Shown one piece after another: positions 1,660 to 23,031 of a stretch of 35,621 bases of DNA. The stretch comes from a virus. Numbering within the stretch: the first letter of the stretch is position 1; every line of letters starts with the position of its first letter. The stretch lies in the UHGV virus genome UHGV-0043842, one strand, 5' to 3'. Position numbers and translations under genes: made by a program. The notes beneath the pieces are model-generated. The model searched no databases and was not told the origin of the DNA. It worked only from the letters and a program-made list of their open reading frames with translations.

Positions 1660-2298
1660 TTAAGAGTGGAGAGTGGAGTTGCCGTCGGCCTGGGCCAGGA
1701 GGCGGTTGAGCGCCAGCGTGGCGGCGCGCACGGCATACTCGCGCATCTGTTCGCGGGAGGGCATCACCTCCGGATGGGCCGGGATGGTGGCGGACTTGAC
1801 CAGGGCTCCCAGCGGGGTGACGTCCTGGTAATGGCCGTCCCTGTTGCGGCGCTTGCGCTGCCTGACGCGGGCCAGGATGGCGTTGCCGGTATCGACGTCG
1901 CCCAGGACCATGACCTCCTCCTCCGGGAGGTGGAGGCTGGCCAGGGAGCGCCGGCGCAGGGGTGAATCCTTAAACGGGATGAGCAGGCTCCTGATGGGAC
2001 GGCCGGTCACCTCCGACCTGCGGCCGGTGGGTCTGACGGTGCCTCCCAGCCATTGCAGGCGTACGCCTGTGTGGGTGATGTCGATGGTGGCCTTGTTGTC
2101 CCGGATGACGGGAGGGTTGACGCTCTGCTTGGCCTTGCCCCAGAATCCCTGGGACTGGGTGCGGTCGATCATGGCCTGCAAGCTGTCCCTCACCGCCTGG
2201 CGGGCGGCCCTGGCCACATCGGCCACCATCTCCGCGCGGATAGCGGGAGCCAGAGGGAGCCGTTGGAGGCCAATCACATCGACGTGTAACCTGATCAT
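1660..2298 (-). CDS. Phage virion morphogenesis-like protein (212 aa); the start was moved to the internal ATG.
   Basis: Homolog of 33331..33960 (THTGVRLQWLGGTVRPTGR vs THTGVRLHLLGGTVRATGR). The paralog starts MISLQV, which supports the MIRLHV start at 2298 rather than 2436. Confidence 0.4.
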   Translation of the reverse strand: MIRLHVDVIGLQRLPLAPAIRAEMVADVARAARQAVRDSLQAMIDRTQSQGFWGKAKQSVNPPVIRDNKATIDITHTGVRLQWLGGTVRPTGRRSEVTGRPIRSLLIPFKDSPLRRRSLASLHLPEEEVMVLGDVDTGNAILARVRQRKRRNRDGHYQDVTPLGALVKSATIPAHPEVMPSREQMREYAVRAATLALNRLLAQADGNSTLHS

Positions 2299-2336
2299 GA
2301 GTTGACAAGGGTTGAGGGTTGGGGCATAAGGGGGAC

Positions 2337-2585
2337 ATGAGCGGAATGGACGGCAAGATCGGCAAGCGCGAGATGGCGCTGTGGCTGCAGTACCTGCGCG
2401 CTCCCGGCCGATCTGGAGAGCAGGATTCTCCCGCACCGCGCAAGCTGCGATGGACAGAGCTGACGCAGTATCAGCGCCGGGCTGTTGAGCGCGGCGAGCA
2501 TGTGCCCTGCTGGTGCGGTACGGACCGGCCGGCTAATGGTCATGGCAACGGCCGCCAGAACCGGCGCAAGTGCCGCAAGGGCTGA
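2337..2585 (+). CDS. Orphan small ORF (82 aa from the ATG; the track starts it at TTG 2319). It converges on the toxin-like MuF gene and is a candidate immunity/accessory gene, or a spurious ORF.
   Basis: It fills a 294-bp gap that module B lacks. An AAGGGGGA Shine-Dalgarno-like sequence precedes the ATG. The composition is basic and GC-rich, so this could be chance. Confidence 0.25.
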   Translation: MSGMDGKIGKREMALWLQYLRAPGRSGEQDSPAPRKLRWTELTQYQRRAVERGEHVPCWCGTDRPANGHGNGRQNRRKCRKG

Positions 2586-2592
2586 TCTGTTA

Positions 2593-3987
2593 TTACTGCT
2601 CGCTGACATAGACGTAAGTGGGTGTGCCGTCCCTCCCCCGGACGATTTTGTTGACCTGGTGGCGCGCGGCCTGCAGGAACAAGACTTCCGACTCATTGGT
2701 GTGGGGATGTTTGTCGGTCTTGTTGACAAGACGCCTTTGCTCCTGGAGGGCGCGGACGACGGCGTCGATGCGGTGGCCGGACCGGTAGTCCTCGTTGACC
2801 AGGATGACCCGCTCGTTGCCCGGTTTGCCGCCACCCGCAAACCGCTGCGCCGTCTCCTCCGCGCGCGACCAGCTGTCCACCATCTTGGTGGGGAGCGCCT
2901 GGTAGCCGTCGCGCCTGATGCGGGACAGGAACCTGTCAACATCATTGGGGGGGATCGACATGCCGCGATAGAGCGTGCCGCTCTCCTTGACGTCGGTGGG
3001 CTGGATCCGGGTGACCGCGTTGTACAGGGCGTCCCACTCTTCCTGGGTGGCATAGCCCTGGACGCCTCGCTGCGCCCGGTCAAACTGGCGCTGATCCTCA
3101 ACGAATTTAACCATCGCTCTGGCCTGGGTGTCCGGGATGACGGGAGGACGCTGCCCGCAGATAACCTTGCCCGCCTCGCTCCAATGCACCGGACGGGTGC
3201 CGTTGGGGTCGGTGTAGTAGACGCGGTCTCCTTCCACCTCCACGCAGTCTTCCAGCGCATTGACAAATGCCTGCTGCAGGTCGCCGTCCATCCTGGCAAT
3301 GGACGCCTCCAGGCTGGCGTTGAGCGACTCGCCGTCAGCTCCCTCCAGCGTCGCCTCCGGAATCGTGAGGCCGTGGCGTCGAGCTTCCTCGTAGTCGACC
3401 GGATCCACCCCCATGCCGCTGTTAAAATCAAAGGGAGGGTAATCCAGATCAAACCGGCTGAGCTTGCGCCAGATGGGCGAGGTCAGCAGCGCGATGTGGG
3501 AGCCGTCGGTAGCCACGCCCTCGTAGTTGACGGCGGCCGCCGCCTCCCTCCAGCGGGCGTCCCAGTCCCTGGGCTGGCGGCTGTAGCGGATACGCACCAG
3601 GCGCTGGGCGGGATAGGCCAGCGACCCCAGCATGGAGTCCCGGTAGGCCCGTTCCCGGACCATGGCGACGTTGGTGTCCAGGATGAGACGCTGGCGGGCG
3701 TCGGAGTTGAGGTCCTGGATAGTACCCTCCGTGCCCGGCTCCGGCTGGTAGCCGGTGGCGCGCAGCATCGCGCGGACCTCGCGCAGAGCGTCCGCCTCGG
3801 ACAGGTTGCCGTCCACAATCCCCTGGCAGCGGTCGCGGAATCCCTGCACGCGGGCATAGCATCCCTCCCTGGCCGTCCAATAGGAGCGCTCCCGGATGTC
3901 CGGATCCACGCCGTCCCAGTCCGCCGACGACATGCCGGCAGCAGGAACCGTGATTTTGGCTCGCATGTAATCCGAGGGAGAGGGCAT
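2593..3987 (-). CDS. MuF-like (Mu gp30 / SPP1 gp7 family) head morphogenesis protein with a ~210-aa C-terminal extension resembling an ADP-ribosyltransferase toxin domain.
   Basis: The N-terminal ~250 aa are homologous to 32570..33334 (DYPPFDFNSGMGV vs GYPPFDFNSGMGV). The C-terminal region is unique to this copy and contains YRG, SWS and ESEVLF motifs in that order. Confidence 0.45.
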   Translation of the reverse strand: MPSPSDYMRAKITVPAAGMSSADWDGVDPDIRERSYWTAREGCYARVQGFRDRCQGIVDGNLSEADALREVRAMLRATGYQPEPGTEGTIQDLNSDARQRLILDTNVAMVRERAYRDSMLGSLAYPAQRLVRIRYSRQPRDWDARWREAAAAVNYEGVATDGSHIALLTSPIWRKLSRFDLDYPPFDFNSGMGVDPVDYEEARRHGLTIPEATLEGADGESLNASLEASIARMDGDLQQAFVNALEDCVEVEGDRVYYTDPNGTRPVHWSEAGKVICGQRPPVIPDTQARAMVKFVEDQRQFDRAQRGVQGYATQEEWDALYNAVTRIQPTDVKESGTLYRGMSIPPNDVDRFLSRIRRDGYQALPTKMVDSWSRAEETAQRFAGGGKPGNERVILVNEDYRSGHRIDAVVRALQEQRRLVNKTDKHPHTNESEVLFLQAARHQVNKIVRGRDGTPTYVYVSEQ

Positions 3988-4014: not shown

Positions 4015-4482
4015 TTACCTCCTCCGCCGGGGGGAAGGAAATAATCCGGGCGCTCCGGAACCGTAGGCGGGACGCGGTCCCTGGACATAAGGACGCTTGC
4101 CGGGAGGCACGGGCATGCGGCCGTCCGGACCGATCACCCGGTGGGTGCCGGCCCGGACCGCCTCCAGACGCTCGCGGGCGGAAGTCGCGGCCTTGTCGCG
4201 GGACTCACTGACTGCCACGGCAAACCGCTTGAGCAGCCGCCAGGCAATCATGTCCAGAGCCTCCGGCCTGAGGGTGCGGGGGATGGTGTCCCTCGTGAGG
4301 TCCATCACATTGGCGGGGTTGGCAGCGATAGCCTCGCGCACGGAGGCCGTCACGTCCTGGATGATGCCGTCAACAACAGAACCGTCCGTATCGGCGGCCG
4401 TGATGGCATCCAGCTCGGCTTGGTCGATAACCTCCAGGAGCATATCCGCCGTCAAGGTGATCCAGTGATTCATGGCAGGCAA
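4015..4482 (-). CDS. DUF1320 / Mu gp36-like protein.
   Basis: Homolog of 32093..32521. Size and position match Mu-like head modules. Confidence 0.35.
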   Translation of the reverse strand: MPAMNHWITLTADMLLEVIDQAELDAITAADTDGSVVDGIIQDVTASVREAIAANPANVMDLTRDTIPRTLRPEALDMIAWRLLKRFAVAVSESRDKAATSARERLEAVRAGTHRVIGPDGRMPVPPGKRPYVQGPRPAYGSGAPGLFPSPRRRR

Positions 4483-4492
4483 CGGTTAATAG

Positions 4493-5122
4493 TCAGGAGA
4501 CGGATTGCTCGTCCGGGACCTCCGGGGCGGCATCGTCCAGGTGCAGGATCATCTCGACGATGGCGTCGCACATGCCGATGGCCTCGGCCGCCTTGCGCAG
4601 GTCGAGCATCTCGTAGGGTTTGGTCCGGGCCAGGATGCCGCTGATCACGCCTCCGGCGATGATGGATGTGATGTGCTGTCTGGGCGACAGGCCGAGCCGC
4701 TTGGCGGTCAGGATGGCGAGGGGAGGCTGCTCTCCGGAGACGCTGTCGTCATGGACGTTGGAGGTCAGACCATGCAGGTCATCGTACTCGTGACTGGTCA
4801 TGTTGGGGCCGGGATCGTCCCCTGCCTCCCCGGAGTCGCTGTCGTCATGGATGTTGGAGGTCAGACCATGCAGGTCATCGTACTCGTGACTGGTCATGTT
4901 GGGGCTGGGATCGTCTCCTGCCTCCCCGGAGTCGCTGTCGCCCATGGGGCAGTCAGTGGCGGGCTCTACGGCTGGTTGATTGGCGGGATTGGCTGCAGGC
5001 TCCGATGCGGATGCCTCGGCAGCGGTGTCCTCCACGGTCGGCGTGGCCTTGTCCTGATCAGGAGTGGTGGTGTCCATCTCCTGGGCAGGTTTGTTGGTCT
5101 TGGTTGATTTCTTGGCTGTCAT
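4493..5122 (-). CDS. Highly acidic protein with 32-aa tandem repeats (209 aa). It is present only in module A.
   Basis: The ORF contains two near-identical 96-bp units encoding DSDSGEAGDDP.PNMTSHEYDDLHGLTSNIHD. Module B has no counterpart between its capsid and gp36-like genes. Confidence 0.45.
   Translation of the reverse strand: MTAKKSTKTNKPAQEMDTTTPDQDKATPTVEDTAAEASASEPAANPANQPAVEPATDCPMGDSDSGEAGDDPSPNMTSHEYDDLHGLTSNIHDDSDSGEAGDDPGPNMTSHEYDDLHGLTSNVHDDSVSGEQPPLAILTAKRLGLSPRQHITSIIAGGVISGILARTKPYEMLDLRKAAEAIGMCDAIVEMILHLDDAAPEVPDEQSVS
4736..4949. repeat. 96-bp tandem direct repeat, about 2.2 copies (units 4736..4831 and 4832..4927, ~96% identical, plus a partial third).
   Basis: Read directly from the sequence. 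The two full units differ at 4 of 96 positions. Confidence 0.9.
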
Positions 5123-5216: not shown

Positions 5217-6185
5217 TCAGGCGATCTGCATGCGCATCATGGCCGAGGGAGCGGCGAACACGACCTTGTGATGGCCGCGCACGCGCAGCCATTCCGTGGA
5301 AATGTCTTCATCTCGATAGGTTTCCACCGTGCTGTACATGTCGTCGCCGGCGAGGTTGAGCGTCTTGAGCGCGGATATGTCGTCCAGGGACGGATTGTCG
5401 TCGGCGTAAAACAGATAGATGTTGCTGCCCACGATATTGACGTTGTCCACTTCCGCGCCTCCCGTGCCTCCGGGATTGTAGGAGGCAATGGTGCGCATGA
5501 CCCTGACCGGCGGGATGTCGTCGCCCTGCAGGCCGATGAGCTCCAGCAGCGTCTCCGGCGTGAGGACCTTGCGGCCCATCTCGCCCATCATGGTCTGGAC
5601 TTCCGTGTTGGCCTGGATGTCCGCCCAGACGTCGCGCGTGGTCAGGATGCGGTTGGGATAGACGCCGTTGTTGACGGCGAATTTGTTGATGAGGCTGGTC
5701 AGGATGCTGACCACGGGCTTGGTGCGGTCGCTCCATTTGTTGGCCTCCGTGATGCCGTCCACCGACGTGATGCCGGGGATGACGGAGTTGGCGTAGTCAA
5801 ACACCTCCTTATTGTGGGAGATGAGCATGCGGCGGGCCAGCGCGCGGGTTTTGGCCTGGCGCAGGCTGGTGCGGTAAACTTCCGCGTCAACCGCTCCGAG
5901 CAGCTCGCGGTCGTCAATGCCGATCTTGAGGGCGTGTTCCTCCAGCATCACCGGGACGTCCTCGCCGCGGATGTCGATAGTGCGGGGGGAGTCGTACATG
6001 GGCCTGCGGGTGTCCGAGGCGGCAAAAGCGTCCTGGCGCAGATAGCGCTTGTAGGTGGTCAGCAGGCCGGGGGCCTTGACGCCGGGAGCCAGGAAGCGTG
6101 CCGGGTCGTGGGTCTGGGTGCCGTACCAGCCGATGATGTAGTTGGTCAGCGGCAGGTTGACGGCGTAGGTTGTGGATGTACTCAT
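5217..6185 (-). CDS. Major capsid protein (Mu gpT-like).
   Basis: 322-aa ORF homologous to 31105..32016. It follows the protease/scaffold and decoration-like genes. Confidence 0.45.
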   Translation of the reverse strand: MSTSTTYAVNLPLTNYIIGWYGTQTHDPARFLAPGVKAPGLLTTYKRYLRQDAFAASDTRRPMYDSPRTIDIRGEDVPVMLEEHALKIGIDDRELLGAVDAEVYRTSLRQAKTRALARRMLISHNKEVFDYANSVIPGITSVDGITEANKWSDRTKPVVSILTSLINKFAVNNGVYPNRILTTRDVWADIQANTEVQTMMGEMGRKVLTPETLLELIGLQGDDIPPVRVMRTIASYNPGGTGGAEVDNVNIVGSNIYLFYADDNPSLDDISALKTLNLAGDDMYSTVETYRDEDISTEWLRVRGHHKVVFAAPSAMMRMQIA

Positions 6186-6695: not shown

Positions 6696-7937
6696 TTACT
6701 TGCGGCGCGCGGAGGCGAATTCCTCCGCTGCCCGTGACCAGGCGCGGTCGTACTCGCCAGGGGTGAGCTGGCGGCCGTGTCTGACGATCTCGGCGTCCAC
6801 GGCCTGGCGGCAGTGGGTCACCAGGTCGACGTCGGATTGCGGCACCTTGACGGCCTTGCCCTCCGGCGTGCGGTGGATGACCACCCCGGCGGGAGTGACG
6901 TCGCGGTCCATGCGCCGGCCTCCCCGGTTGCTGTGCAGCTGGCGCGTGAGGGGAGCCCTGCTGTGGGCCTGGGTGCCTCCGTTGGACTCTGCTGCCTGCT
7001 GCTTGAGGAGGTCAAAGTCGGTCTTGAGGTCGGTGACGTACTTGAGGATGTCGTCTCCGGTGGCCGTGTCGGGCAGGCCGCACACCCCGGCTATTTTGTT
7101 GACGAGGCCCAGCCAGCCCTCGTCATCCGAGTTGCAGCTGGTTTCGTCCTTTTGGTCGGTGTCGTTGTTGGCGCTGGTTTCGTCTTTCTTTTCCTCTTCT
7201 GTGGTGGCAGGAGGGGGATTGTCGTTGTTGGCGTTGATTTCTTGCTGCTTCTTTTCCTCATCTTCGGGGGCGGGATTGCCCTCGGAGTGCAGGATCCGTT
7301 GTGTTGCTGTTTGTGTACTCATGGTTGTGGATTGGAGGATGGAGGCGCTGCGGCTGTGGACGACCACGTCGCCCGCGGCGGATTGGAGGATGATGCCCGG
7401 CTGGGCCTCATGGTCCGGGTTGTTGGTGACGGCCAGACCGGACAGGCGCGTGGGGCTGTAGCCGTTGTGGTAGACGCGTTTGTAGTCGGCCAGCTTGTAC
7501 TCGGTGCTGAATGCCCAGTACTTGCCCTGGTTGAGGTCGTGGTGGGCATCCTTGACCCAGGAGATGTAGGCGGCCTGGTAGAGGCGGCCGCCGACCCATC
7601 CGTAGTCCAGCGCCCTGCACCAGCCCAGGGCCGGGTTGTCGCCGGTGGTGCGCAGATGCAGGTGGTCGTTGTTGACCTGGATGCCGTTGCCGCCGTTGAT
7701 AGCCGGGTCGTAGGCCTCGCAGATGGCCTGCAGCGCCGCCTTGTCGATGACCTCGTCCACGTCCCAGCGCTTGGCAGGCGGGATGGAGGTGTCAGGCACC
7801 GGGACAGTGTAGGTGCCGGCCGGCTCAATGAGGAACCAGCCTGATTGCGGGACCTGTCCAATGGGGTATGGAGCGCAGGCGTCCGGGTCGAATTCCGGGA
7901 TGCCGCGGGCGATGTATCTGTCTCGGTAGTTGCTCAT
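6696..7937 (-). CDS. Mu gpI-like prohead protease/scaffold.
   Basis: Homolog of 29629..30630 (LAVTNNPDH vs LALTNQPNNPG). Contains an acidic, low-complexity insertion. Confidence 0.45.
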   Translation of the reverse strand: MSNYRDRYIARGIPEFDPDACAPYPIGQVPQSGWFLIEPAGTYTVPVPDTSIPPAKRWDVDEVIDKAALQAICEAYDPAINGGNGIQVNNDHLHLRTTGDNPALGWCRALDYGWVGGRLYQAAYISWVKDAHHDLNQGKYWAFSTEYKLADYKRVYHNGYSPTRLSGLAVTNNPDHEAQPGIILQSAAGDVVVHSRSASILQSTTMSTQTATQRILHSEGNPAPEDEEKKQQEINANNDNPPPATTEEEKKDETSANNDTDQKDETSCNSDDEGWLGLVNKIAGVCGLPDTATGDDILKYVTDLKTDFDLLKQQAAESNGGTQAHSRAPLTRQLHSNRGGRRMDRDVTPAGVVIHRTPEGKAVKVPQSDVDLVTHCRQAVDAEIVRHGRQLTPGEYDRAWSRAAEEFASARRK

Positions 7938-9673
7938 GCGTGGGATGGGGCTGAATTTGCGCCGTGCAGGGGTCGTGCAGGGCCGAATGTGGCCAGAGAC
8001 GGGTCAACGGCCGCCGCGCGGCGTTTCCCCTCGTCACGGGCCTCCTGGAGGCGTCGGGCAATCTGGAGGGCGGTGGAGACGATCTCCTCCTCTCCGGGGA
8101 CCTGCAGCGCATCCTTGAGACGGGCCTGCTCATCCGGGGAGAGGGGAAGCAGCTCCAGCGTGACCCGTTCCAGGCGCTCGTCGATATCTTGCAGGCGGTG
8201 GGCGACCACCTCCTCCAGGCGGCGGCGCGCCGGCTCCCAGAGCGTGGTGCCGCGGTGGAGGGCCAGTGTCGTGATGGCGTCGCGGCGGCGGGAGTTAAGC
8301 GTGTAGGGCGTCTCCTGGGAGCGTTTGCCGCCATTCTCCATGGCCCGCTGCTCCGGCGCGTAGCCGGCGGTCCTGATGGCGTAGAGCTCGGAGGAGGAGA
8401 CTCCGGCGGTCACCTGCCAGCCGGTGCGCTCGCTGACCTCGGCGTCGTCGATGTCGTAGCCGGCGGCGCGCAGAGCGGCGGCGTTGGCGATTTCTTTCTC
8501 CGGCGTGGTCTTGTCTACGCAGGAGAGCGTAAAATTCACCAGGTGAGGCTGGCCGGGGTGGTACTCGTCGAGCACCCGGTTGACCAGCTGGGCCGTCAGC
8601 ACGGAGGCAATATGGTCGGCTTCGCCGGCCGCCCAGGCCTTAAAGCCGTCAGCCTGGGCGTTGCCGGCCAGGGTGCCGGAGCCGGACTCGGTCATGACTG
8701 TGAGCTTGCCGGCGGTGGTCAGCATGGCGATCTCCTCGGTGGCTACCTTGTAACGGCGGTCAAACAGGTCGACGCTCGTCTGGGATATCGGGATGGACTT
8801 GATATCGGAGTCGTGGTCGATGACGCCGGTGGCCGCCGAGTAGCACATGGCCGACATCTTGATGTACTCCTGACGCAGCTCCTCGGAGCAGTCAGGAGGA
8901 AGCACAAAAAATGCCGGCGGCGTACCCAGCCTCTCCAAGAACACGTCCCACTGGGCCAGCGTCGTGCTACGGTTAAGCACCAGCATCTGGGCGGGCATGT
9001 CGATGGGCCGGGGATGCAGACGCAGGATGAGGTCCTCCAGAGGCACGGGCAACGGCTCCCCCCGGTAGCGGCTAAACTGGGCATTCGGGTTGTATCCCCA
9101 GGGTCCACGGTAACCGTCGCGGCACATCAGCCAGTTGTCGACGGGCAGCAGATGCAGGCCATCGCCGTCGGCGTAGGGCTGCAGGAATTTGTAATGGCGG
9201 CGGGACGCCTGGGACAGGGCGGTGATGGCCTCGTCCATGTTGACGATGGCGTTGCACAGGTCGGTAATGGTGCGCTGCTGGGCCTCGGCCAGCAGGCTGT
9301 CCCTGTCGTCCAGGTCCGGCTTGACCGTGACGGACCAGTCGTACTTGCTCAGCGCGTCGTCCCGCTTGGTAATGCAGGTCATCAGCATGGGATCGTACTG
9401 CTCCATCTGCTCCCAGATCCACTGCTGCTCGGCATAGGCCCCCAGCTGGCAGTCCTGCAGGCAGCGCCGTATGGTATCCACGCTCAGGTAGTCCAGCGGG
9501 CACACGCGCTCAATCTGGCGGCGGCGTACCTTGTCCAGCTCGGCCAGGGCGAGTGCGGCAAACATGGCCGGCTTGCTGTCCTGGGATGCCTTGTCCGGCG
9601 CGGTAAGCGCCCGCTGCACGCCCTCTGCATGGAGCCTGCGGTGGAGGATGTAGTTGTAAAGTCGCTTGATCAT
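7934..9673 (-). CDS. Portal protein (Mu gp29 / DUF935-like).
   Basis: 579-aa ORF directly downstream of the terminase. Homologous to 27460..29520 (ESGSGTLAGNA shared). Confidence 0.55.
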   Translation of the reverse strand: MIKRLYNYILHRRLHAEGVQRALTAPDKASQDSKPAMFAALALAELDKVRRRQIERVCPLDYLSVDTIRRCLQDCQLGAYAEQQWIWEQMEQYDPMLMTCITKRDDALSKYDWSVTVKPDLDDRDSLLAEAQQRTITDLCNAIVNMDEAITALSQASRRHYKFLQPYADGDGLHLLPVDNWLMCRDGYRGPWGYNPNAQFSRYRGEPLPVPLEDLILRLHPRPIDMPAQMLVLNRSTTLAQWDVFLERLGTPPAFFVLPPDCSEELRQEYIKMSAMCYSAATGVIDHDSDIKSIPISQTSVDLFDRRYKVATEEIAMLTTAGKLTVMTESGSGTLAGNAQADGFKAWAAGEADHIASVLTAQLVNRVLDEYHPGQPHLVNFTLSCVDKTTPEKEIANAAALRAAGYDIDDAEVSERTGWQVTAGVSSSELYAIRTAGYAPEQRAMENGGKRSQETPYTLNSRRRDAITTLALHRGTTLWEPARRRLEEVVAHRLQDIDERLERVTLELLPLSPDEQARLKDALQVPGEEEIVSTALQIARRLQEARDEGKRRAAAVDPSLATFGPARPLHGANSAPSHA

Positions 9674-9676: not shown

Positions 9677-11131
9677 TTACGCTGCTGACGGTAGATGGTT
9701 GAGGGAGGGGCGGCCTCCGAACAGGGAGCCGTGGGAGCGGCCGCCAAACAGTCCAGCGCCGGTGATGATGCGTCCGCTGCCTGGCGCCGGGAGATGGTGC
9801 TGCACGTGGCCGTCGGCCGCGCGCAGGGCCAGAGCCAGGGCCGTACACCGGTCGGAGTGTCCTTCCCTGGTGTGCGGGGCCTCGTAGGTATAGTCCGTGC
9901 CTCTGAATATCTGCTGCATGGCGTGCAGGTCCTCGCGAATCTCCACGTCAATCGGGATGCGCACACGGGTCGGAGCCTCAAAGGCCTGGCGGAGGCGTGG
10001 GAAGATGAGACGCTTAAAGGCCGGCGTAAAGGTGCAGAGCTCGATCCGGCCAAACTCGTGACCCTCCGGATGCCAGCGCTTGAATTCCTTGACCAGGACA
10101 TCGCCCATACCGATGCCTACGCCCGTGTAGTCGTAGCACACCCGGCGCGCCGCCTTGATGCGGTGGCGCAGCACCTCCATCTGGTCCGGCACGGACATGT
10201 TGCGCAGCACCAGCACCTCGCGGGTGACCAGCACGTCACCCACCCGCTCCAATGTCCAGCAGACCGTCGGGTCGTTGGAGCGGCCAAAGTCGATGCCCAG
10301 GCGCAGGTCCAGCTTGCCTCCCAGGTAAATGGCCGGGTCGCAGGAGACCGTGGCGCTGGCGGACTCCGCCGTGGCGATCAGGTCGTAGGGCAGCAGCACG
10401 TTGGAGGAATCCAGGAATTCGCACATGTACTCCTGCGCCCAGCCGATGGGGTCGTCCAGGGATTCTCTTAACTCGTCAATGTCGATGGGCAGTCCGTCCT
10501 CCACGGCCTTGGCAATCGTCACCACATGGCAGGACCAGTGCTGCTTGCGGCCCTCCACAGGTTGGAGCAAATTGTCGGAGATGATCTTGTATGTCCTGGC
10601 GCCGCGGCCCGTCTTGCCGTTGGGCGTGGTGATAAGCCGGACTTTTTTCTCGCCGCCCCGGAGGGGATTAGTGATGGAGGGCAACACGGCTCTCCAGGTG
10701 GCGTCAGGATCCTCGAAAAACGCGAATTCCGTCAGGACGAGATTGGCGCTAAAGCCTCGCACGGTATCGGGCCTGCCGGGCACGGCCAAAATGCGGGAGC
10801 CGTTGGCAAATGTGATGGAGCCGGACTTGAGCAGGGTGTTGGGGCCGTCCTGTCGTTCGATTTCCTCGGCAGCCAGGGCAAGGGAAAAAGCCTCGGCCCA
10901 CTCCTTACACTTGGCCAGCGATTCCATGGCCTGGCGCTCGGACGGGGCCGCGATCATCCAGGTGGTCTTGGCCCGCAGCATCGCATCCCTCACCGCCTCC
11001 GCCGCCGTGGAAAAATCCTTGCCGGACTGGCGGGACCAGATGCCGACCTTAAAGCGGCTCTCGTCCGCCACCCACCGTGCCTGGTAAGGCAGCAGCAGCT
11101 CCAGCGGCGTTGTGATCAGGGAGGACATCAT
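9677..11131 (-). CDS. Terminase large subunit (Mu gp28-like), in a single ORF.
   Basis: 484 aa. Walker A-like WSRQSGKD, then a nuclease-like LGIDFGRSNDPT segment. Homolog of the split pair 25825..26757 + 26754..27455. Confidence 0.55.
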   Translation of the reverse strand: MMSSLITTPLELLLPYQARWVADESRFKVGIWSRQSGKDFSTAAEAVRDAMLRAKTTWMIAAPSERQAMESLAKCKEWAEAFSLALAAEEIERQDGPNTLLKSGSITFANGSRILAVPGRPDTVRGFSANLVLTEFAFFEDPDATWRAVLPSITNPLRGGEKKVRLITTPNGKTGRGARTYKIISDNLLQPVEGRKQHWSCHVVTIAKAVEDGLPIDIDELRESLDDPIGWAQEYMCEFLDSSNVLLPYDLIATAESASATVSCDPAIYLGGKLDLRLGIDFGRSNDPTVCWTLERVGDVLVTREVLVLRNMSVPDQMEVLRHRIKAARRVCYDYTGVGIGMGDVLVKEFKRWHPEGHEFGRIELCTFTPAFKRLIFPRLRQAFEAPTRVRIPIDVEIREDLHAMQQIFRGTDYTYEAPHTREGHSDRCTALALALRAADGHVQHHLPAPGSGRIITGAGLFGGRSHGSLFGGRPSLNHLPSAA

Positions 11132-11933: not shown

Positions 11934-12253
11934 AAGGACTTGCGGGTTTTGAGGATGTCAATCATAAGTTTAAGGGTGCCGGACATCTCGTTGAGCTTGA
12001 TGGTGATACTGTTGAGGCGCTTGTGCATGTCGTCGGTGGTCTTGGCGTGGAGGGCCTTGAGCTCCGCCACCTCCTCACGGGTCGCGTACTTGTCCTCCAT
12101 CAAGAAGCGCTGGGGATCGTCGGATTGCTGCGGAGCCTTGCGGCCCTTGACCACCCACCATGTCCCGGACGAGCCGAGAGCAACGCCGAGGATGGTGCCT
12201 ACTGCCTCCGGTGAGATGCCTGCGGCGGCGTCTGCTATCAGGTTGAGCATCAT
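11930..12253 (-). CDS. i-spanin-like protein (N-terminal TM helix plus a coiled-coil domain); the start was moved to the internal Met-Met.
   Basis: Homolog of 24663..25001. Its ATG overlaps the endolysin stop in an ATGA arrangement, as in module B. Confidence 0.4.
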   Translation of the reverse strand: MMLNLIADAAAGISPEAVGTILGVALGSSGTWWVVKGRKAPQQSDDPQRFLMEDKYATREEVAELKALHAKTTDDMHKRLNSITIKLNEMSGTLKLMIDILKTRKSL

Positions 12254-12858
12254 GACTGGAGCAGTTGGGCCAGCGTGGCGGACCCGGTGGTGTAGGCGTG
12301 ATGGAGGGTGGCCGTGGACAGCTCGCCCAGCTGGACGTGTCCAGGATCGTAAATGGACTTGAAATCCCCTCCCCATACCAGCCCCAGCTTATGGGCCAGG
12401 GCCGCCACGGGCTTGTAGATGGAATTCGCTCCCTCGCTGGGCGTCCATACGTCCTTGCCGTCGACAAACAGGCAGACGTCACCCGCAATTCCGAAGTTGT
12501 GCATGCTCTGCCCTCCTTTGGCTCTGGTTACTCTGGGCCTCTTGCCGTAGAGTCTGTCCTGCTCCTCATACGTGCGGATGCCGCAGATGAGCTTCCAGTC
12601 GGCCAGGCCTCGCAGGGCCGTCATCATCTGGCGCACCTTGAGCGCGGCCAGGGGCTGGAGGGTAAGCAGGTTGTCCTCCGTGCGCTTGTCCAGCCGGCCG
12701 TAGCGGGTCTGGAGCTGTTGATGGCTCTCGCGCCACAGGGCCGCCGCCTTGCGGGTCAGCGGGCCTGTCAGGCCGTCAAGCCGACCCCGATAAAAACCGG
12801 CGAATTTCAGGGAGCGCTGCCAGGACAGCGTGTCGGATTGTAATGCTGCGTAAATCAT
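12250..12858 (-). CDS. Endolysin: peptidoglycan-binding domain plus peptidase M15 (VanY / L-Ala-D-Glu peptidase-like).
   Basis: N-terminal PG_binding-like LKFAGFYRG.LDG. C-terminal motifs SMHNFGIAGD and DPGHVQL. Paralog of 24061..24666. Confidence 0.65.
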   Translation of the reverse strand: MIYAALQSDTLSWQRSLKFAGFYRGRLDGLTGPLTRKAAALWRESHQQLQTRYGRLDKRTEDNLLTLQPLAALKVRQMMTALRGLADWKLICGIRTYEEQDRLYGKRPRVTRAKGGQSMHNFGIAGDVCLFVDGKDVWTPSEGANSIYKPVAALAHKLGLVWGGDFKSIYDPGHVQLGELSTATLHHAYTTGSATLAQLLQS

Positions 12859-13950: not shown

Positions 13951-14673
13951 TCAGGACGGCAGAACCAGACCGAGACGGTCGGTGGCGATACGGTGGTAGT
14001 CGGACGACAGCTCAATGCCCACGGCCGTGTGTCCCTTGTTGCGGGCCGCCACCAGCGTGGTGCCGCTGCCGGCAAACGGGTCCAAAATGCGCGAGCCGGA
14101 CGGCAGGATGGTCATGAGGTGCTCCATCAGAGGGACCGGCTTGCCCGTCAGGTGGAGCTTATCCCTGGGGCGGATCGGCTCGCGCACCACTCCCGGAGGA
14201 CAAAGCCTGACGGATTTGTCGTATCCTCCGTGCGTGGCGGTCAGGACGTACTCGGCCTGGTTGCGGTACAGCCCCAGCTGGGGTCGGCAGCTTTCCGTTT
14301 TGTCCCAGGGGATGATGCCTCTCCACGTCCAGCCGGCAATCTGCAGGGCGTCCGAGGTCAGGGGCAGTTGACGCCAGTCCGTAAATACCATCAGCCAGCC
14401 GCCGGGGCGCGTCAGGCGCAGGGCCTGCTCCATCCACCGCACGGACCACATCAGGTGGGTACGCTGGTCGCGGTTGTCATTGGCAAATGTCGGGTAATAT
14501 TTACGGGTTCCGGACAGCTGGTACCTGACGCGCGGGTCTCGATCCCTGGCGGCCGTAGAGAGGCCTCCGCTGGCGTAGGGCGGATCAGTAATCACGGCAT
14601 CGTAGGATGCCTCCGGCATGGTCGACATCAGGGACATGCAGTCCCCGTGCAGCATGGTATATGTGTTGGTCAT
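13951..14673 (-). CDS. Orphan DNA methyltransferase (N6-adenine/N4-cytosine, beta-class; DPPY motif followed by a C-terminal FxGxG motif).
   Basis: VITDPPYASGG motif IV precedes the ILDPFAGSGTT motif I. No restriction endonuclease lies adjacent. The track starts it at TTG 14697; ATGs at 14673 or 14655 are more likely. Confidence 0.7.
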   Translation of the reverse strand: MTNTYTMLHGDCMSLMSTMPEASYDAVITDPPYASGGLSTAARDRDPRVRYQLSGTRKYYPTFANDNRDQRTHLMWSVRWMEQALRLTRPGGWLMVFTDWRQLPLTSDALQIAGWTWRGIIPWDKTESCRPQLGLYRNQAEYVLTATHGGYDKSVRLCPPGVVREPIRPRDKLHLTGKPVPLMEHLMTILPSGSRILDPFAGSGTTLVAARNKGHTAVGIELSSDYHRIATDRLGLVLPS

Positions 14674-14717
14674 CGGACGCGAGCATAGCTCGCTCAAATG
14701 CCTCTCTCTAACGCCAC

Positions 14718-16077: not shown

Positions 16078-16330
16078 TATGAACGCGCCTATGACGGCCG
16101 AAGAATGGGCCATCTGGGGTGCCCTGTGGAACATCCCGGAGGTGCGTCGCCATTACCGGGTGGCACACGACGGCCCGCTCACCTGCCCGGAACTGGCCCA
16201 TTACCTGGGATTGTCCGACAAGGCTGTCTGGGAGCTGCAGGACAAAGCCCTGGTCAAGCTGAGGGTGGCCCTCAACCGTTACATCCTGCAGCAGGAGATC
16301 AATCGTCAACAACATTTCGACAACCAATGA
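16055..16330 (+). CDS. Small HTH protein resembling sigma-70 region 4 (91 aa).
   Basis: LTCPELAHYLGLSDKAVWELQDKALVKLR segment. Confidence 0.35.
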   Translation: MMNDTPVDMNAPMTAEEWAIWGALWNIPEVRRHYRVAHDGPLTCPELAHYLGLSDKAVWELQDKALVKLRVALNRYILQQEINRQQHFDNQ

Positions 16331-17124
16331 AACACGAGCTTATGATAACCGCGGAAACGCGGGTGGCGCTGGGCGTCAGCGAGGCCAACCGCCTGCACCG
16401 GTATGCCCAGGCCCAGGCCGAGATGGCGGCATGCGCCGGGCGCAATGCCGTGACGGCAGGACTCAAACTGGGCAAGCTGCTGGTAGATCTTAAGGCCGCG
16501 ACGGATCATGGAGAGTGGGGAGAGTTATTCAAGGCCGCATCAAATTCGACACATGTGTCGAATTTGGATTTCGATCAAAGGACAGCCAACCGCTACATGC
16601 GCTGTTATAAAGCGGCTAAGGCCAGGCTCTCTGCCACCGAATCCGCCCAACTGGACGCCACTCTGAATGACCGGACGGCTCCATCCCCCCCTCCGGAACT
16701 GGTAGCCAAGGCCACCGACGGAGCCGAGACACCCCGGCAAATGATGCTCAACCTGGGCGTGATTGCCACCCGCAAGCGGACAACGCACGACCGGGTCAAG
16801 CCCCTGGGCTTTACCGGCTCCGGCAACCCTGACGGGGCGCAGGCCCTCACCCCGATGGATAAGCTGGCCAATGACCTGGCCGCCCTCAACCTCCCCCCGG
16901 AAGAACTGGAGCGCCGCCGGCACCAGGCCGAGCAAGACGCTGCCTGCCTCCTCAAACAGCTGGGAACCTTTGTCGACCAGGGCTACGTCCACCTGCTGCG
17001 CCTCCAGGAGCGTGAGCTGTTTGCCGATTCCCTGGCCGCTTACGCCCGCAAGGTATCCGATGCCGACGTGCAGAGCGTCAGGGCCACGATGGATGGAATA
17101 GCCAACGGTACAACAACACTTTAA
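16327..17124 (+). CDS. Hypothetical early protein (265 aa).
   Basis: ATG at 16327 overlaps the upstream stop (ATGA). Coding-like composition. Function unknown. Confidence 0.4.
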   Translation: MKHELMITAETRVALGVSEANRLHRYAQAQAEMAACAGRNAVTAGLKLGKLLVDLKAATDHGEWGELFKAASNSTHVSNLDFDQRTANRYMRCYKAAKARLSATESAQLDATLNDRTAPSPPPELVAKATDGAETPRQMMLNLGVIATRKRTTHDRVKPLGFTGSGNPDGAQALTPMDKLANDLAALNLPPEELERRRHQAEQDAACLLKQLGTFVDQGYVHLLRLQERELFADSLAAYARKVSDADVQSVRATMDGIANGTTTL

Positions 17125-17128
17125 GATA

Positions 17129-19159
17129 ATGGACTTTAATATCACCATGGACGATCTGCCGCTGGTGGAGCGGGACAGAGTGCTGGCCCTCTATGCGGCC
17201 TGCAAGCGCATCAGGGAGGCCAGCGCCTGCTATGGCGGGCAGCAGGATGCCATCCGGGATGCCGCCGCCCTCTGCGGTATCTCCCCGGTGACTATGCGCC
17301 GCTGGTACGACATCTGGCGCAACAACGGCGACAATCCCCTCTCCCTGGTGGACCGCCGCTACCGTAAAATACAGGCGCGCAGCCGGGTCACCCTCAGCAA
17401 ATTCCTTGCCTACTGGCATGGCCTCTGCACCCGGTGCCAGCGCAACGGAGGCATCCCCACGGCCCGCCAGCTCCTGCTCAAGACCTGGACGGAGAGGCGC
17501 GACACCATCCCCGGCTATGAGGACTGGCCGGGCTGGCCGCGCGTCCCCTCCGGCTGGAGCCTGCGCAACCTGCAGAGGCTCGCTCCCCAATCTCTGGAGA
17601 CGGTGGCGCTCAAGCAGGGCATCCGGGCCGCCGCGCCCCAGCTGGCGCAGGTACTGGCCACCCGCGAGGGGCTCTGGCTGGGAAGTCATTTCCTCTTTGA
17701 CGACGTCTGGCTTGACTTGATGGTGCTTTCCGGGCGGGACAAAGGGCAGCCCCTGCAGCTGGGCGTGCTGGAGTACCTTACGGGCAAGCGTGTGGCGTGG
17801 GGGCAAAAGATACGCCGCCGCGATGAGGAGACGGGCAAGATGATCCACCTTAACCAGCGGGACATGCGCAGCATCCTGGCCCTGTGGGGAGCTACCGTCG
17901 GGTACTCGCCCAAGGGGACGACGCTCGTCGTCGAAAACGGAACGGCGGCTATCAGCAAGGAGCTGGAAGAACTGCTCTACCATGCCAGCGGCGGCCTGAT
18001 CAAGGTGGACCGCTCCGGCATCGGAGGCGTGCGCCAGACGCTCAAGCAGGGCCACAGCGGCCGGGGCGTGGGCAACCCGCGCCACAAGGCGGCGCTGGAA
18101 AGCTACCACAACCTGCAGCACAACCGTATCAGCCATCTGCCGGGAGCCACCGGCCACGACCGCACGCCCCCGGAAACCCTGCACGGGCTGGTACGCGCCG
18201 AGGAGCAGCTCATCAAGGCGATGGACAAGCTGCCCGCGAATAAAGCCGGTCAACTCAAGCACTACATGCTGACCATGGACGAGCTGAGCCGCGAGTTGAC
18301 CAAGATAGTCAGCGACATCAACACGCGCACCGACCACAGGTTGGAGGGCTGGGAGCGATGCGGGTTCATGGTCGAGGAGCTGCGCCTCTCGGCTTCCGCC
18401 TCCTGGACACCGTCCTCCGAGGTGGAGCCGTCCATGGCCGCCCAGATCATCCGCACCGCCTGCGAAACCGGGGCCGACCTGGTGCGCCGGCGCCGGATGA
18501 GCCCCTCCGAGGCATGGGCCTGCGAGGAGGCCAAACCGGGCAACAGGCTCATCAAGCTGCCCCCCTGGTGCATCTGCCAGATCCTGGGCACGGACATGGC
18601 CCGCCCCATCAAGGTGGCCAGCGCCTACATCCGGATGCGCGACAAAACCATCCGTGATGAAGACCTGATTTACGAGGCCCGCGTGGCGACTCCTGACGGA
18701 GCCGTCCGGGTTCTGCCCCACGGCACGTACCAGGGTTACGTCAATCCCTACGATGACAATCAGCTCTTTGTGTGCGGGCAGGACGGGCGCGTCATCGGCA
18801 CGGCCTCCCTCGTGCAGAGGGTATGCACGGCGGATACGCACGCCGTGGAGCAGGCCATGGGCAAGGCGGCCGGGTATCGGGAGCAGCAGCTGGAATATGC
18901 CCGCATCATCGGAGCCAATACCGAGGCGGACATCGTCCGCAAGCGCGAGCACAACAGGCGCCTGATGGAGGGCAAGCCGGTGACGGCCGCCGAGTATGCC
19001 CAGGCATACTCCCTCACCCCCACTCCCGCCGATAAGCGGACCGTGACCAGGGCAGCTACGGCGGCGGCCGAGTCCATGCCGGACATCAGCCTCATCCCCG
19101 CCAGCGGCAGCAATGACGACGAGCTGCCCCACGACCTGCCCGATGTAAGATTTTTATAA
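17129..19159 (+). CDS. Mu A-like DDE transposase (676 aa).
   Basis: Size and position upstream of an AAA+ B-like ATPase. N-terminal DNA-binding-like region. Acidic residues consistent with a DDE core. Confidence 0.5.
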   Translation: MDFNITMDDLPLVERDRVLALYAACKRIREASACYGGQQDAIRDAAALCGISPVTMRRWYDIWRNNGDNPLSLVDRRYRKIQARSRVTLSKFLAYWHGLCTRCQRNGGIPTARQLLLKTWTERRDTIPGYEDWPGWPRVPSGWSLRNLQRLAPQSLETVALKQGIRAAAPQLAQVLATREGLWLGSHFLFDDVWLDLMVLSGRDKGQPLQLGVLEYLTGKRVAWGQKIRRRDEETGKMIHLNQRDMRSILALWGATVGYSPKGTTLVVENGTAAISKELEELLYHASGGLIKVDRSGIGGVRQTLKQGHSGRGVGNPRHKAALESYHNLQHNRISHLPGATGHDRTPPETLHGLVRAEEQLIKAMDKLPANKAGQLKHYMLTMDELSRELTKIVSDINTRTDHRLEGWERCGFMVEELRLSASASWTPSSEVEPSMAAQIIRTACETGADLVRRRRMSPSEAWACEEAKPGNRLIKLPPWCICQILGTDMARPIKVASAYIRMRDKTIRDEDLIYEARVATPDGAVRVLPHGTYQGYVNPYDDNQLFVCGQDGRVIGTASLVQRVCTADTHAVEQAMGKAAGYREQQLEYARIIGANTEADIVRKREHNRRLMEGKPVTAAEYAQAYSLTPTPADKRTVTRAATAAAESMPDISLIPASGSNDDELPHDLPDVRFL

Positions 19160-19183
19160 CATAACAGACACAATAATAACAAT

Positions 19184-20224
19184 ATGGACGATATTACAAA
19201 AATCAACAACAATGCCAACCTGAGCAGGTATCTGGACCGCATTCAGGATACGCCGTACAAACCGGCTCACAAGAAGATGCTCACCGACCTGATCAACTAC
19301 GCAGTAGACCATGACTGGACGCTGCGCACGCTGGCCGACAAGCTGCCGGTGAGCACGACGGTCATGCACCGCCTGCTGATTGGCGCTTACCAGGCCCCGA
19401 CCGGCCCTCATCTTTCCAAGCTTGATGACCTGTGCGGTCTGCTGGCCCTGCGCCAGCAATCAGCGTCTGACGGGCCGTTTATCGAGACGGCTCTGGCACG
19501 CTACGTGATGCAGATTGCCGAGCTGACCCACGTCAACCAATACGCCTCCATGCTGGTGGGCAAGACGCAGTGGGGCAAGACCTGGGCGCTCAAGGAGTAC
19601 GCCCGCCGCCATCCCGGTACGGTTATCATGGTGCGCTGCCCGGTGGTCACCAGTCCGGGACGGCTGCTCTACCGCATTGCCGCCCAATTAGGCCTGTCGG
19701 TCAAGGGGAACACCGAGTTCCAGATTGCCAAGATTGTCAACCGCCTGACTCCGGAGCACCTGCTCATTGTCGACGAGATCCACCACGCGCTGGACAGCGA
19801 CAAGACCGGACGCAAGGGCATTGAACAGCTGCGGGAGATCTACGACGAGACCCAGTGCGGCATGCTCCTGGTGGGCACGCCCGTCCTGGCCGAGTACGTC
19901 GAAAAAAATGACAAGTGGAAAGGCATCCTGGAGCAAACCTCCAAGCGAGGGGCGGCCAATATCTACCGCCTCCCGGACCATATCGAGACCCGCGACCTGG
20001 AAACCCTGTGGACTTATTACGGCTATCCGTCCCCCAGCCGGGCCATGCTGGCCACCCTCAAGCAGCAGGCCAATTTGTACGGATTCGGCAAGACCACCAA
20101 GCGCCTGCGCAAAGGGGTGGAGGCCGCCAACAATGCCGGGGTGGACCTTACATGGGACTACTACCTGGCCGCCGTCCGAAAACTTGAAGAAATGGAAGCC
20201 GGCAAGATGCCGGAATACGTATAA
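19184..20224 (+). CDS. Mu B-like AAA+ transposition ATPase.
   Basis: Walker A GKTQWGKT and Walker B LLIVDEIHH. Located immediately downstream of the transposase. Confidence 0.55.
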   Translation: MDDITKINNNANLSRYLDRIQDTPYKPAHKKMLTDLINYAVDHDWTLRTLADKLPVSTTVMHRLLIGAYQAPTGPHLSKLDDLCGLLALRQQSASDGPFIETALARYVMQIAELTHVNQYASMLVGKTQWGKTWALKEYARRHPGTVIMVRCPVVTSPGRLLYRIAAQLGLSVKGNTEFQIAKIVNRLTPEHLLIVDEIHHALDSDKTGRKGIEQLREIYDETQCGMLLVGTPVLAEYVEKNDKWKGILEQTSKRGAANIYRLPDHIETRDLETLWTYYGYPSPSRAMLATLKQQANLYGFGKTTKRLRKGVEAANNAGVDLTWDYYLAAVRKLEEMEAGKMPEYV

Positions 20225-20244
20225 CCCCCCCCCTCAAAAAAATC

Positions 20245-20601
20245 ATGCGCAAGAAGACCATTAAATACACCATCGTTGACCTGGGAGGAACCCGATATGT
20301 GGTCCTCCGCCTGGCTGACCTCGACGCCCTCATCACCACGCATCACAGCCTTTCTCTGGAACTTATCCCGGTATTGAGCGAGGCGCAGTGGGAACGGCAC
20401 CGTCAGCTGCTTTACATCACCCAGCATATCCATGTTGATCGGGTCAGCCATTGCAAGGTGGCCCTCCTGACCAAGACGGACTATGACTCCCTCAATCTGG
20501 CCATATCCCATCTGCACGCCCTGCTGGGCAATATCCGCCTGGCCAGTATCACCGTCGGCCCCACTGAGGCCGACCAGCCTGACTCAACTTCCAACCAATA
20601 A
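20245..20601 (+). CDS. Hypothetical early (semi-essential region) protein, 118 aa.
   Basis: ORF in operon context. Confidence 0.35.
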   Translation: MRKKTIKYTIVDLGGTRYVVLRLADLDALITTHHSLSLELIPVLSEAQWERHRQLLYITQHIHVDRVSHCKVALLTKTDYDSLNLAISHLHALLGNIRLASITVGPTEADQPDSTSNQ

Positions 20602-20802
20602 CACCACCATCATGTACAGCACCAACACTAACAATCAACAGGACAGGGGGCGGCAAGCCCCCAATGTCAAACCGGCTCCCAAGGGAGGCCAAACAATGAA
20701 AGATATGTTTACCGCCACACCTGCGGAGCTGAGATCATCGAGCGCATCGCCAAGCGGGCTGTCGCCCTTTACCGTAAATACGGCAATACCGACGTCGATG
20801 AG

Positions 20803-21006
20803 ATGGATATCCAGATGGACCTGGAAGCATGTCATTGCAACGGGTGCCCACTGCGGCTTGCTGACATGGAGCAGGCTGATGCTTTTAACCTGATGCACGA
20901 TGTCACAGGCATCAACATGCACCTTAATCGCAACACGGGAGAACTGAGTAAGCGTTTCCTGCCTCGCTTTTTTGATGCTTCCAAAGAGGGCCGCCGCCAT
21001 GAATGA
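20803..21006 (+). CDS. Small ORF (67 aa). Its frame is protein-like for ~30 codons upstream of its first ATG, while a different frame has a strong RBS+ATG at 20696.
   Basis: Frame-1 translation from 20707 reads YRHTCGAEIIERIAKRAVALYRKYGNTDVDEM... without a start codon. Frame 2 has GGGAGG then ATG at 20696, giving a W/S-rich 65-aa product. Confidence 0.25.
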   Translation: MDIQMDLEACHCNGCPLRLADMEQADAFNLMHDVTGINMHLNRNTGELSKRFLPRFFDASKEGRRHE

Positions 21007-21244
21007 GGACATCTACTGCTATTACCACCGGCACGCACGCCTGGAGATCATCCAGCGCCATGGGCAGACCTATGCGGTCTGCCCGGAGTGCCGAAGAATC
21101 ATGACCGAGGGTATCCGCTCAGAGCTGAACCGCGCCAATCACGGCAATCATCTTTCCTCTGATGACCTGGTACACAAGCTGATCAACAGAGCCGAGCCTG
21201 TTAATCCCATCCCTCCCGTCTACATCTACATTGACCAGCCATGA
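20999..21244 (+). CDS. Small zinc-ribbon-like protein (81 aa; CYYHRH...CPEC).
   Basis: Cys/His pairs. ATG overlaps the upstream stop. Confidence 0.35.
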   Translation: MNEDIYCYYHRHARLEIIQRHGQTYAVCPECRRIMTEGIRSELNRANHGNHLSSDDLVHKLINRAEPVNPIPPVYIYIDQP

Positions 21245-21516
21245 CCTACGATCCCAATACACTGGCCTATCTCATCGGCCTGCAACTCTCCCGCTTCCCC
21301 GGAGCCTGTGACCACTGGGAAGTCTGCGACCCCCGCTGGCCGGGCATGATCGCCATCCGGCTGGAGCAGCTCGGACAGTACTACGTCCCTGTAGATGGAG
21401 AGCGATTTCTGGAGTGGCTCAGCGCCACGCCAGACCTTACCTGGCAGCATGTCGTAAACATGCTGGCCAAAAAGAGAAAACAACTCAACAAACAACACAC
21501 ACGCAACAATGGGTAA
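21241..21516 (+). CDS. Hypothetical protein (91 aa).
   Basis: ATGA overlap with the upstream gene. Confidence 0.35.
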   Translation: MTYDPNTLAYLIGLQLSRFPGACDHWEVCDPRWPGMIAIRLEQLGQYYVPVDGERFLEWLSATPDLTWQHVVNMLAKKRKQLNKQHTRNNG

Positions 21517-22030: not shown

Positions 22031-22193
22031 GATTGAGGTTAAAGACTATGGATTCCAGACCCTGCTGGCTATCTGGACGGGCACTGATAGAGGAGGAGCA
22101 ACAGCCACTCTTGTCTATCTGACGCCCAAGCAGCGGCAACAACTGATCAAGGCTCTACAAAATCCCGAACAACAATCTGATAATGAGCAATAA
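22023..22193 (+). CDS. Small ORF (56 aa), translationally coupled.
   Basis: GAGAGGAG Shine-Dalgarno sequence ~8 nt upstream. ATG overlaps the Gam-like stop and its own stop overlaps the next start. Confidence 0.3.
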   Translation: MTKIEVKDYGFQTLLAIWTGTDRGGATATLVYLTPKQRQQLIKALQNPEQQSDNEQ

Positions 22194-22812: not shown

Positions 22813-22950
22813 AGTGACACGGTATCATTTGAAGACGAATTCCCCCTGTAACTTTTCGCATCCCTGCGGATGCGCGGATTGAAACCAAACCGAAGCGGAA
22901 CAACTGGTCAGACGGTCCAAAAGGCTTGCAGTATCAGACTTTCCCGGCAA

Positions 22951-22983: not shown

Positions 22984-23031
22984 TGCGTCCCTGCTCCTGA
23001 AAAACCGTTAAGCGTGTGGTAATATGGACAC

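Follow-up and report, generated by a model that had tools for sequence, protein, structure and literature searches.

In UHGV virus genome UHGV-0043842, analysed here as a window of 35,621 nucleotides, a minus-strand gene (2593..3987) encodes a 464-amino-acid (aa) protein that is probably a virion-delivered effector: a minor head protein of a Mu-like (pro)phage of Akkermansia/Verrucomicrobiota, in which a MuF-type domain is fused to an ADP-ribosyltransferase (ART) domain, with a linked candidate immunity gene on the opposite strand. The gene, taken from the listing of open reading frames (ORFs), ends with a double stop (TAATAA). Residues 1 to ~219 (~220; 3331..3987, minus strand) correspond to a divergent MuF minor head domain of the Mu gp30 / SPP1 gp7 type; residues ~220–335 (2983..3330) to a linker, a conserved (Y/F)TDPNGT(R/K)P hairpin and the helical N-terminal part of the ART domain; and residues 336–464 (2596..2982) to the putative ART catalytic core. 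The convergent small ORF (2337..2585, plus strand) encodes 82 aa, is basic with an Arg/Lys-rich C-terminus, and is the candidate ART-neutralising (immunity) gene.

Judging from its motifs and from a structural model, the C-terminal part of ~200 residues is an R-S-E-type mono-ADP-ribosyltransferase fold with a complete Y-R / S-x-S / E-x-E catalytic set. The three motifs that the first-pass annotation had noticed occur in the expected order, TLYRGMS (Y340-R341), DSWSR (S372-W-S374) and NESEVLF (E432-S-E434), with spacings of 31 and 62 residues; the catalytic codons are at 2965-2967 (R341), 2872-2874 (S372), 2866-2868 (S374), 2692-2694 (E432) and 2686-2688 (E434). Among 13 homologs with identities as low as 29%, R341 never varies and the conservation of S372 and E434 is at least 90%, and the R, S-x-S and E-x-E elements are intact in the window and in most relatives down to ~25% identity. 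T259, D260, N262, G263 and T264, in the hairpin stretch that precedes the ART core, are likewise invariant. In the model of the C-terminal part, helices H23-30, H41-51 and H69-80 fall within residues ~220–335, and R341, S372 and E434 lie on the first, second and fifth core strands (model strands 93-99, 124-128 and 188-192), so that the structure prediction places the triad within the core strands of an ART fold, as had been proposed. Because the extension beyond the MuF-like region is predicted to be an ART fold, it is not just a part of an ancestral MuF protein.

Comparison of the C-terminal part with ART family profiles, which the first-pass annotation had recommended, gave a divided answer: the direct Pfam search was negative, while a profile of the family itself reached proteins in stretches that Pfam assigns to ART families. 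This family profile finds 258 representatives (E<=1e-3), including large portal-ART and MuF-ART proteins; in four of them (P0175, P0176, P0179 and P0219; E 3e-13 to 9e-8) the matched stretch is Pfam ADPrib_exo_Tox/ART, and one family member matches the Alt/Mod PHROG 'RNA polymerase ADP-ribosylase'. A weak profile match to XopAI (E 0.034) was obtained among PDB sequences at the E-x-E motif. When the window protein, both its halves and the small ORF were scanned directly with Pfam and PHROG, a single match resulted, a weak one of the ART part to a PHROG annotated as 'minor head protein'. Myoferlin, the only match of a single-sequence PDB search, was rejected as spurious. The motifs and the model point to ADP-ribosylating enzyme activity, and the E-x-E motif suggests, from what is established for this clade, that arginine would be the modified residue.

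The 464-aa protein is co-linear with a shorter paralog elsewhere in the window (32570..33334, plus strand; 254 aa), as had been noted from the sequence: residues 1-256 align at 34% identity (E 2e-38), and the ~208 further residues are unmatched. The paralog belongs to a second phage module (module B, the one carrying the MuF-ART gene being module A), and comprises the MuF-like domain only, without the ART domain, the gap and the small ORF described below. A profile of 20 N-terminal homologs aligns with Mu gp30, the founding member of the MuF family, over 186 columns (hhalign probability 95.3%, E 2.3e-8), the invariant family motif YPPFDFNSGMG falling on gp30 HYPPNGWNCRCRV. Fourteen of the 20 homolog N-termini match phrog_220 (best E 1.5e-13), the same family that is matched by Mu gp30 itself at 1e-119. 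An AlphaFold2 model of the N-terminal domain (mean predicted local distance difference test score, pLDDT, 86.9) retrieves from BFVD almost exclusively head-morphogenesis or MuF-like minor capsid proteins (best E 2.7e-4, template modelling score 0.54); no solved structure matched this model, and the N-terminal profile matched nothing among PDB sequences. Given the hhalign match to gp30, the phrog_220 matches and the BFVD fold matches, the N-terminal ~220 residues are best described, by profile and by predicted fold, as a divergent MuF (Mu gp30 / SPP1 gp7-type) domain, and the MuF-like identity first suggested on sight of the sequence stands.

Beyond the 3' end of the MuF-ART gene lies a gap of 294 bp (2299..2592), delimited by a conserved downstream neighbour, the next late gene (1660..2298, minus strand), which starts at 2298 and encodes a putative neck/head-completion-type protein of 212 aa. 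Both the absence of this gap from module B, where the equivalent genes overlap (33331 versus 33334), and the presence in it of the opposite-strand ORF agree with what had been read from the sequence initially. According to tblastn, the same late gene is found downstream of the MuF-ART homolog in most loci, and it overlaps or abuts the MuF-like gene in copies without ART. Nearly every ART-bearing relative has a gap of 150–470 bp with an opposite-strand ORF after the ART gene: gap and convergent ORF occur in ~19 of 19 loci with an intact triad, which are not phylogenetically independent of one another, and in none of five triad-less copies, namely module B, L027 and L028, which have no ART, and L021 and L026, which retain the long form and have lost the triad. 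In all five of the latter, the next gene overlaps or abuts. This comparison of sequences shows a conserved opposite-strand gene slot that is tied to the integrity of the predicted catalytic triad.

Counted from its ATG, the small ORF has 82 codons; with a TTG at 2319 as its start, it would have 88. At 64% GC, ~10% of frames would stay open over such a length by chance (an estimate from base composition), so that the ORF in the window alone is weak evidence for a gene, and support has to come from comparison with relatives. It is intact in 21 of 21 close loci, in which three alleles of 82, 83 and 70–71 aa were found, and it has been called as a gene in public assemblies. The gaps of these close loci measure 294, 297, 258 or 261 bp, all multiples of three, and the indels that separate the alleles keep the frame. 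As the frame running in the direction of the late genes is also open across the gap, being the codon-aligned antisense partner of the convergent one, we asked which strand shows coding-type evolution by comparing the convergent and the co-directional frame, each used in turn for alignment. Synonymous versus antisense-synonymous changes favor the convergent frame in three pairs of relatives (27 versus 8 for L006/L010, 22 versus 7 for L011/L012, and 26 versus 12 for L016/L017), and amino acid identity between L006 and L010 is 45 of 85 in the convergent frame versus 26 in the co-directional one; this advantage holds whichever frame is used for alignment. In the group L019/L020/L024, neither frame wins. 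The GC content at third codon positions (GC3) of the convergent frame is 0.86 in L020, 0.81 in L024 and 0.76–0.82 in the Akkermansia alleles, compared with 0.84–0.87 in flanking genes, and favors the convergent frame in every high-GC locus. In divergent relatives, then, the pattern of substitutions indicates that it is the convergent frame, and not its antisense shadow, that is under purifying selection.

By sequence, at least four unrelated families can be distinguished among the small ORFs. An apparent conserved C-terminus of the family-2 proteins, SSTVK, was rejected as evidence, being the antisense shadow of the conserved LTVEE end of the ART gene.

Upstream of the small ORF, the sequence contains a sigma-70-like promoter candidate (2302..2330, plus strand) consisting of TTGACA (2302-2307), a 17-nt spacer and CATAAG (2325-2330), followed after 6 nt by the ATG; a site this close to the start codon implies a leaderless or near-leaderless mRNA. 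The promoter scan makes no call here because the -10 hexamer lacks the final T. Of 19 diverse loci, 13 have a TTGAC at a distance of 36–42 nt before the convergent start. On the same strand, a hairpin followed by a T-run (2628..2654), within the last codons of the ART gene and 42 nt past the stop of the small ORF, resembles a terminator. A similar site is present in L001, and none was found by the terminator scans of L010 and L016; given this inconsistency among relatives, the terminator is weak evidence. With its conserved slot, its coding-type selection in relatives, its promoter-like site and its occurrence only beside an intact triad, the convergent ORF fits the accessory or immunity gene that the first-pass annotation had suggested.

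The co-directional frame has features of its own. It is open across the gap in all loci, among them the window (2299..2592) and L004, L006, L010, L013, L015–L017, L020 and L022–L025, its ATG overlaps the TGA of the ART gene (ATGA) in 12 of 19 loci, and its end often overlaps the start of the next gene; its amino acid sequence is poorly conserved. TTA, CTA and TCA codons, which are stops on the antisense strand, occur once in the convergent gene versus ~18 expected, and gene callers picked the co-directional frame in two relatives. In P0027 and P0036, frameshifts produce read-throughs from the ART gene into it. Possibly it is translated, as a 'bridge' across the antisense gene. For the window, we rejected the co-directional ORF as a real gene: the ART gene ends there in GTAA, without the ATGA overlap, and since the expected number of TTA, CTA and TCA codons is zero, the open frame is explained as a shadow.

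Variation among close relatives is concentrated in the same region. L033 and L034 share 99–100% nucleotide identity with the window elsewhere, falling to 82–91% in the ART core and to ~52% in the gap before returning to 99%; L034 alone has one further, separate divergence island. Within the first 335 residues, L034 is identical to the window protein at 335 of 335 positions and L033 at 334, and the 13–18 substitutions in residues 345-452 are clustered in the helix 345-358. L036 shows the reverse pattern, a divergent N-terminus together with an allele-A ART core and an allele-A ORF. Apart from one recombinant locus, L035, to which we return below, the ART core and the small ORF thus appear from these alignments to form a local hypervariable cassette against conserved flanks.

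These observations are compatible with the following sequence of events. Going by what is known of MuF proteins and of T4 Alt, the MuF-ART protein would be expressed together with the late head genes and incorporated into the capsid via its MuF domain. On the model of SPP1 gp7, Mu gp30 and T4 Alt (PMC5576092, PMC5512222), it would then enter the next host cell with the DNA, where the ART domain would use NAD+ to ADP-ribosylate a host protein. The small gene, having its own promoter-like site and terminator-like hairpin, could be expressed apart from the late operon, for example from the prophage. Its product would neutralise the ART, as an immunity protein shielding the producing or lysogenic cell. 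Considering that the slot exists only beside intact ARTs and that it varies with the ART core in a hypervariable cassette, neutralisation of the ART, and hence immunity, is the most likely role of the small protein.

Several observations weigh against this reading and have to be set beside the evidence above. No Pfam ART model reaches threshold for the window protein, and no Pfam model (including PF04233 and PF06152) matches the window protein or any of the 20 N-terminal homologs at E<=1. The substitution phases of the Akkermansia alleles are nearly neutral ([29,21,26] and [28,23,36]), meaning that the small gene evolves very fast or is weakly constrained, and that its coding status in these alleles rests mainly on GC3, on indels that keep the frame and on comparison with relatives. 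No homology was detected among small ORFs from different lineages (BLASTP E 2.8; hhalign probability 0.2%), a result that fits diverse immunity proteins and unrelated morons equally well. In the recombinant L035, the ART helix is of type C and the small ORF of type B; coupling between ART and ORF is therefore not absolute, and their co-variation is partly plain linkage. A convergent orientation is unusual for an immunity gene, and for a packaged ART that serves host takeover, as T4 Alt does, no immunity protein is required. Finally, the MuF-ART gene lies five genes from the portal gene instead of adjoining it as canonical muf genes do (PMC5576092).

With these points in mind, we weighed three other explanations. 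The MuF-ART protein might be a virion-delivered host-takeover enzyme that, like T4 Alt, requires no antidote, the small gene being an independent moron (for superinfection exclusion, anti-defence or regulation) at a permissive, recombination-prone site 3' of the ART gene. The promoter-like and terminator-like signals of the small gene, such as morons have, would suit this explanation, as would the unrelatedness of the four or more small-ORF families, the shuffling of ART-core and small-ORF alleles seen in L035, and the family member that matches the Alt/Mod PHROG. We nevertheless regard it as rather unlikely, as the perfect link between triad and ORF in presence and absence, extending to L021 and L026, where the long protein is kept and triad and ORF are both lost, is difficult to account for without a functional relationship between them. 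Still less probable, in our view, is that the convergent ORF is untranslated and the gap regulatory, either because an antisense promoter silences a leaky toxin in lysogens (through antisense RNA or transcriptional interference) or because the co-directional frame is the real, translationally coupled gene. While the nearly phase-neutral Akkermansia alleles, the undecided L019/L020/L024 group, the deficit of antisense-stop codons, and the openness, ATGA overlaps and occasional gene calls of the co-directional frame could all be read in this way, at informative divergence the convergent frame has two to three times more synonymous changes and much higher amino acid identity, GC3 favors it in every high-GC locus, and in the window the co-directional frame lacks the ATGA overlap and is a shadow.

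That the C-terminal domain has the ART fold but no catalytic activity and serves a structural role in the head, the long form being ancestral and the paralog truncated, we consider very improbable. The retention of the long form with a degenerate triad in L021, L026 and P0054, and the Pfam searches, in which no ART model reached threshold, are in keeping with a dead domain; however, the R, S-x-S and E-x-E elements are intact here and in most relatives to ~25% identity, and the ART core, unlike a conserved structural piece, is a hot spot of diversity. We retain a capsid-delivered MuF-ART fusion with a linked candidate immunity gene as the probable explanation.

A more elaborate version of this explanation, which we put forward only as a speculation that we ourselves doubt, is that verrucomicrobial Mu-like phages have a new layout for capsid-delivered toxins: an ART tip and an antisense immunity gene that has its own promoter and a leaderless transcript and is expressed by the prophage, with the late mRNA crossing that gene through an open co-directional 'bridge' frame that is start/stop-coupled to both neighbours, so that both strands would be coding. 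If this were true, a lysogen would be protected against the effector that kin phages inject, an immunity at the level of the effector and not of the repressor.

A search of 5.8 billion proteins returned only 67 homologs of the window protein, none of which has a Pfam domain and one of which is named Akkermansia sp. Nineteen of the 22 genome loci with relatives are in metagenome-assembled genomes (MAGs) of Verrucomicrobiota. The other three (L007, L008 and L009) are contigs 95–100% identical to the window phage, filed in Oscillospiraceae and Collinsella MAGs; these labels probably reflect binning contamination and not a different host. Close copies are also found on 21 IMG/VR viral contigs. The same N-terminus occurs with an ART domain (in most), with a degenerate ART (L021, L026, P0054), with unrelated C-termini (P0045-51, P0048-50, P0055/56) or with none (module B, P0052-67), and this combination of a constant, putative delivery domain with alternative C-terminal domains is that of a polymorphic toxin. 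P0035 (263 aa, 18 contigs) consists of the C-terminal half by itself, linker and ART, and lacks the MuF domain; it may be a split-gene variant or a start-site miscall.

The MuF-ART gene is part of a Mu-type head module that extends from the large terminase through the gp36-like gene. On the minus strand, the order is large terminase (TerL; 9677..11131), Portal_Mu (7934..9673), protease/scaffold (6696..7937), a 148-aa ORF, major head protein (5217..6185), a 209-aa ORF, Mu gp36-like connector (4015..4482) and then the MuF-ART gene, and most relatives keep this order around it. In L006 (the P0039 contig), the MuF-ART gene, the convergent ORF and the downstream gene lie ~4.7 kb past the gp36-like gene, after genes for 699-aa and 177-aa proteins, from which the three seem to move as a unit. 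The 209-aa protein (4493..5122, minus strand), encoded between the major head and gp36-like genes, is acidic and contains a tandem repeat of ~32 aa, DSDSGEAGDDP.PNMTSHEYDDLHGLTSN.HDD, twice; 4493..5122 is apparently the sole other divergence island among near-identical phages (bins 13-15, coordinates converted from bins). Past the terminase, module A extends for ~3 kb only, with an M15 peptidase (12250..12858) and a DNA methylase (13951..14697), and a transposase of this module was not seen in the window.

Module B (16105..35621, plus strand) is a second Mu-like phage with the same gene order. The two modules stand head to head, minus-strand genes occupying 1..~14700 and plus-strand genes 16105..35621, and the GC content drops to 0.46 at 15001-16000; the arrangement may stem from the insertion of one phage into the other or from a chimeric contig. 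The left end of module B encodes a helix-turn-helix protein (17129..19159) and a TniB/MuB-like AAA ATPase (19184..20224). Its portal protein (27259..29520, plus strand; 753 aa) has at its C-terminus a PBECR2 domain (residues 647-752, E 1.7e-7, passing the Pfam cut-off), a nuclease domain of the Barnase/EndoU/ColicinE5-D/RelE-like group. The two phages would thereby differ in their candidate capsid-delivered effectors, which are a MuF-borne ART in module A and a portal-borne nuclease in module B.

MuF toxins form an established class on which few experiments have been done. The window protein appears to be a sequence-divergent MuF polymorphic toxin of this known class; new are the phylum, the relocated gene and the convergent companion gene with its promoter-like site. 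As both of its domains are Pfam-negative, standard domain libraries miss phylum-level branches of MuF toxins. The finding would place a capsid-borne ADP-ribosylating effector in prophages of Akkermansia, a medically interesting gut commensal whose phage biology is barely known. Public viral contigs offer a natural test series in near-isogenic phages that differ almost only in ART core and small ORF (alleles A, B and C), and since an intact triad and the ORF beside it strictly go together, such pairs can be sought with a simple annotation rule.

The closest known systems are the MuF polymorphic toxins of temperate phages (Jamet et al. 2017, PMC5576092), which include a MuF-ART, the 'EFV toxin' of Enterococcus faecalis V583. 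There, 14% of MuF toxins are ARTs, immunity ORFs downstream of MuF toxins are known (PMC5576092), and for one pair, Apk2/IapK, immunity has been validated experimentally (PMC12226406). Like those proteins, the window protein has an N-terminal MuF domain and a variable C-terminal toxin domain, short toxin-less MuF paralogs exist, a small ORF follows the toxin-bearing and not the short forms, and the phage is temperate, here Mu-like. In contrast, the MuF domain in the window is too divergent for PF04233 or PF06152, with the 'NCRC' motif of gp30 replaced by 'NSGMG'; the gene follows a gp36-like connector gene and not the portal gene, although a position directly downstream of the portal gene is the context that defines canonical muf genes (PMC5576092); the companion ORF is encoded on the other strand and has a promoter-like site of its own; and the host phylum is Verrucomicrobiota, which is unmentioned in PMC5576092. 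Portal/MuF-PBECR fusions have also been described (Iyer et al. 2017, PMC5512222). Mu gp30 and these fusions share with the window protein a homologous N-terminal domain and the hanging of an effector on a portal-associated head protein, although Mu gp30 has an inactive PBECR at its C-terminus and no ART, and its gene directly follows the portal gene. T4 Alt, which is packaged in the head, injected with the DNA and modifies host proteins on arginine (PMC5512222), is, as are ModA and ModB, an R-S-E-type ART like the window protein, to which direct sequence similarity was not detected for Alt, ModA or ModB; unlike the window protein, Alt has no MuF fusion and no immunity partner, and T4 is virulent. 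In the ART toxin–immunity pairs Tre1-Tri1 of Serratia (6drh) and Lmo0066 of Listeria with its ARH-type immunity protein (8za7), delivery is by type VI secretion or type VII secretion-like routes and not by a capsid, and the immunity proteins are larger and ARH-like, whereas the window candidate is a basic protein of 82 aa without detectable homology.

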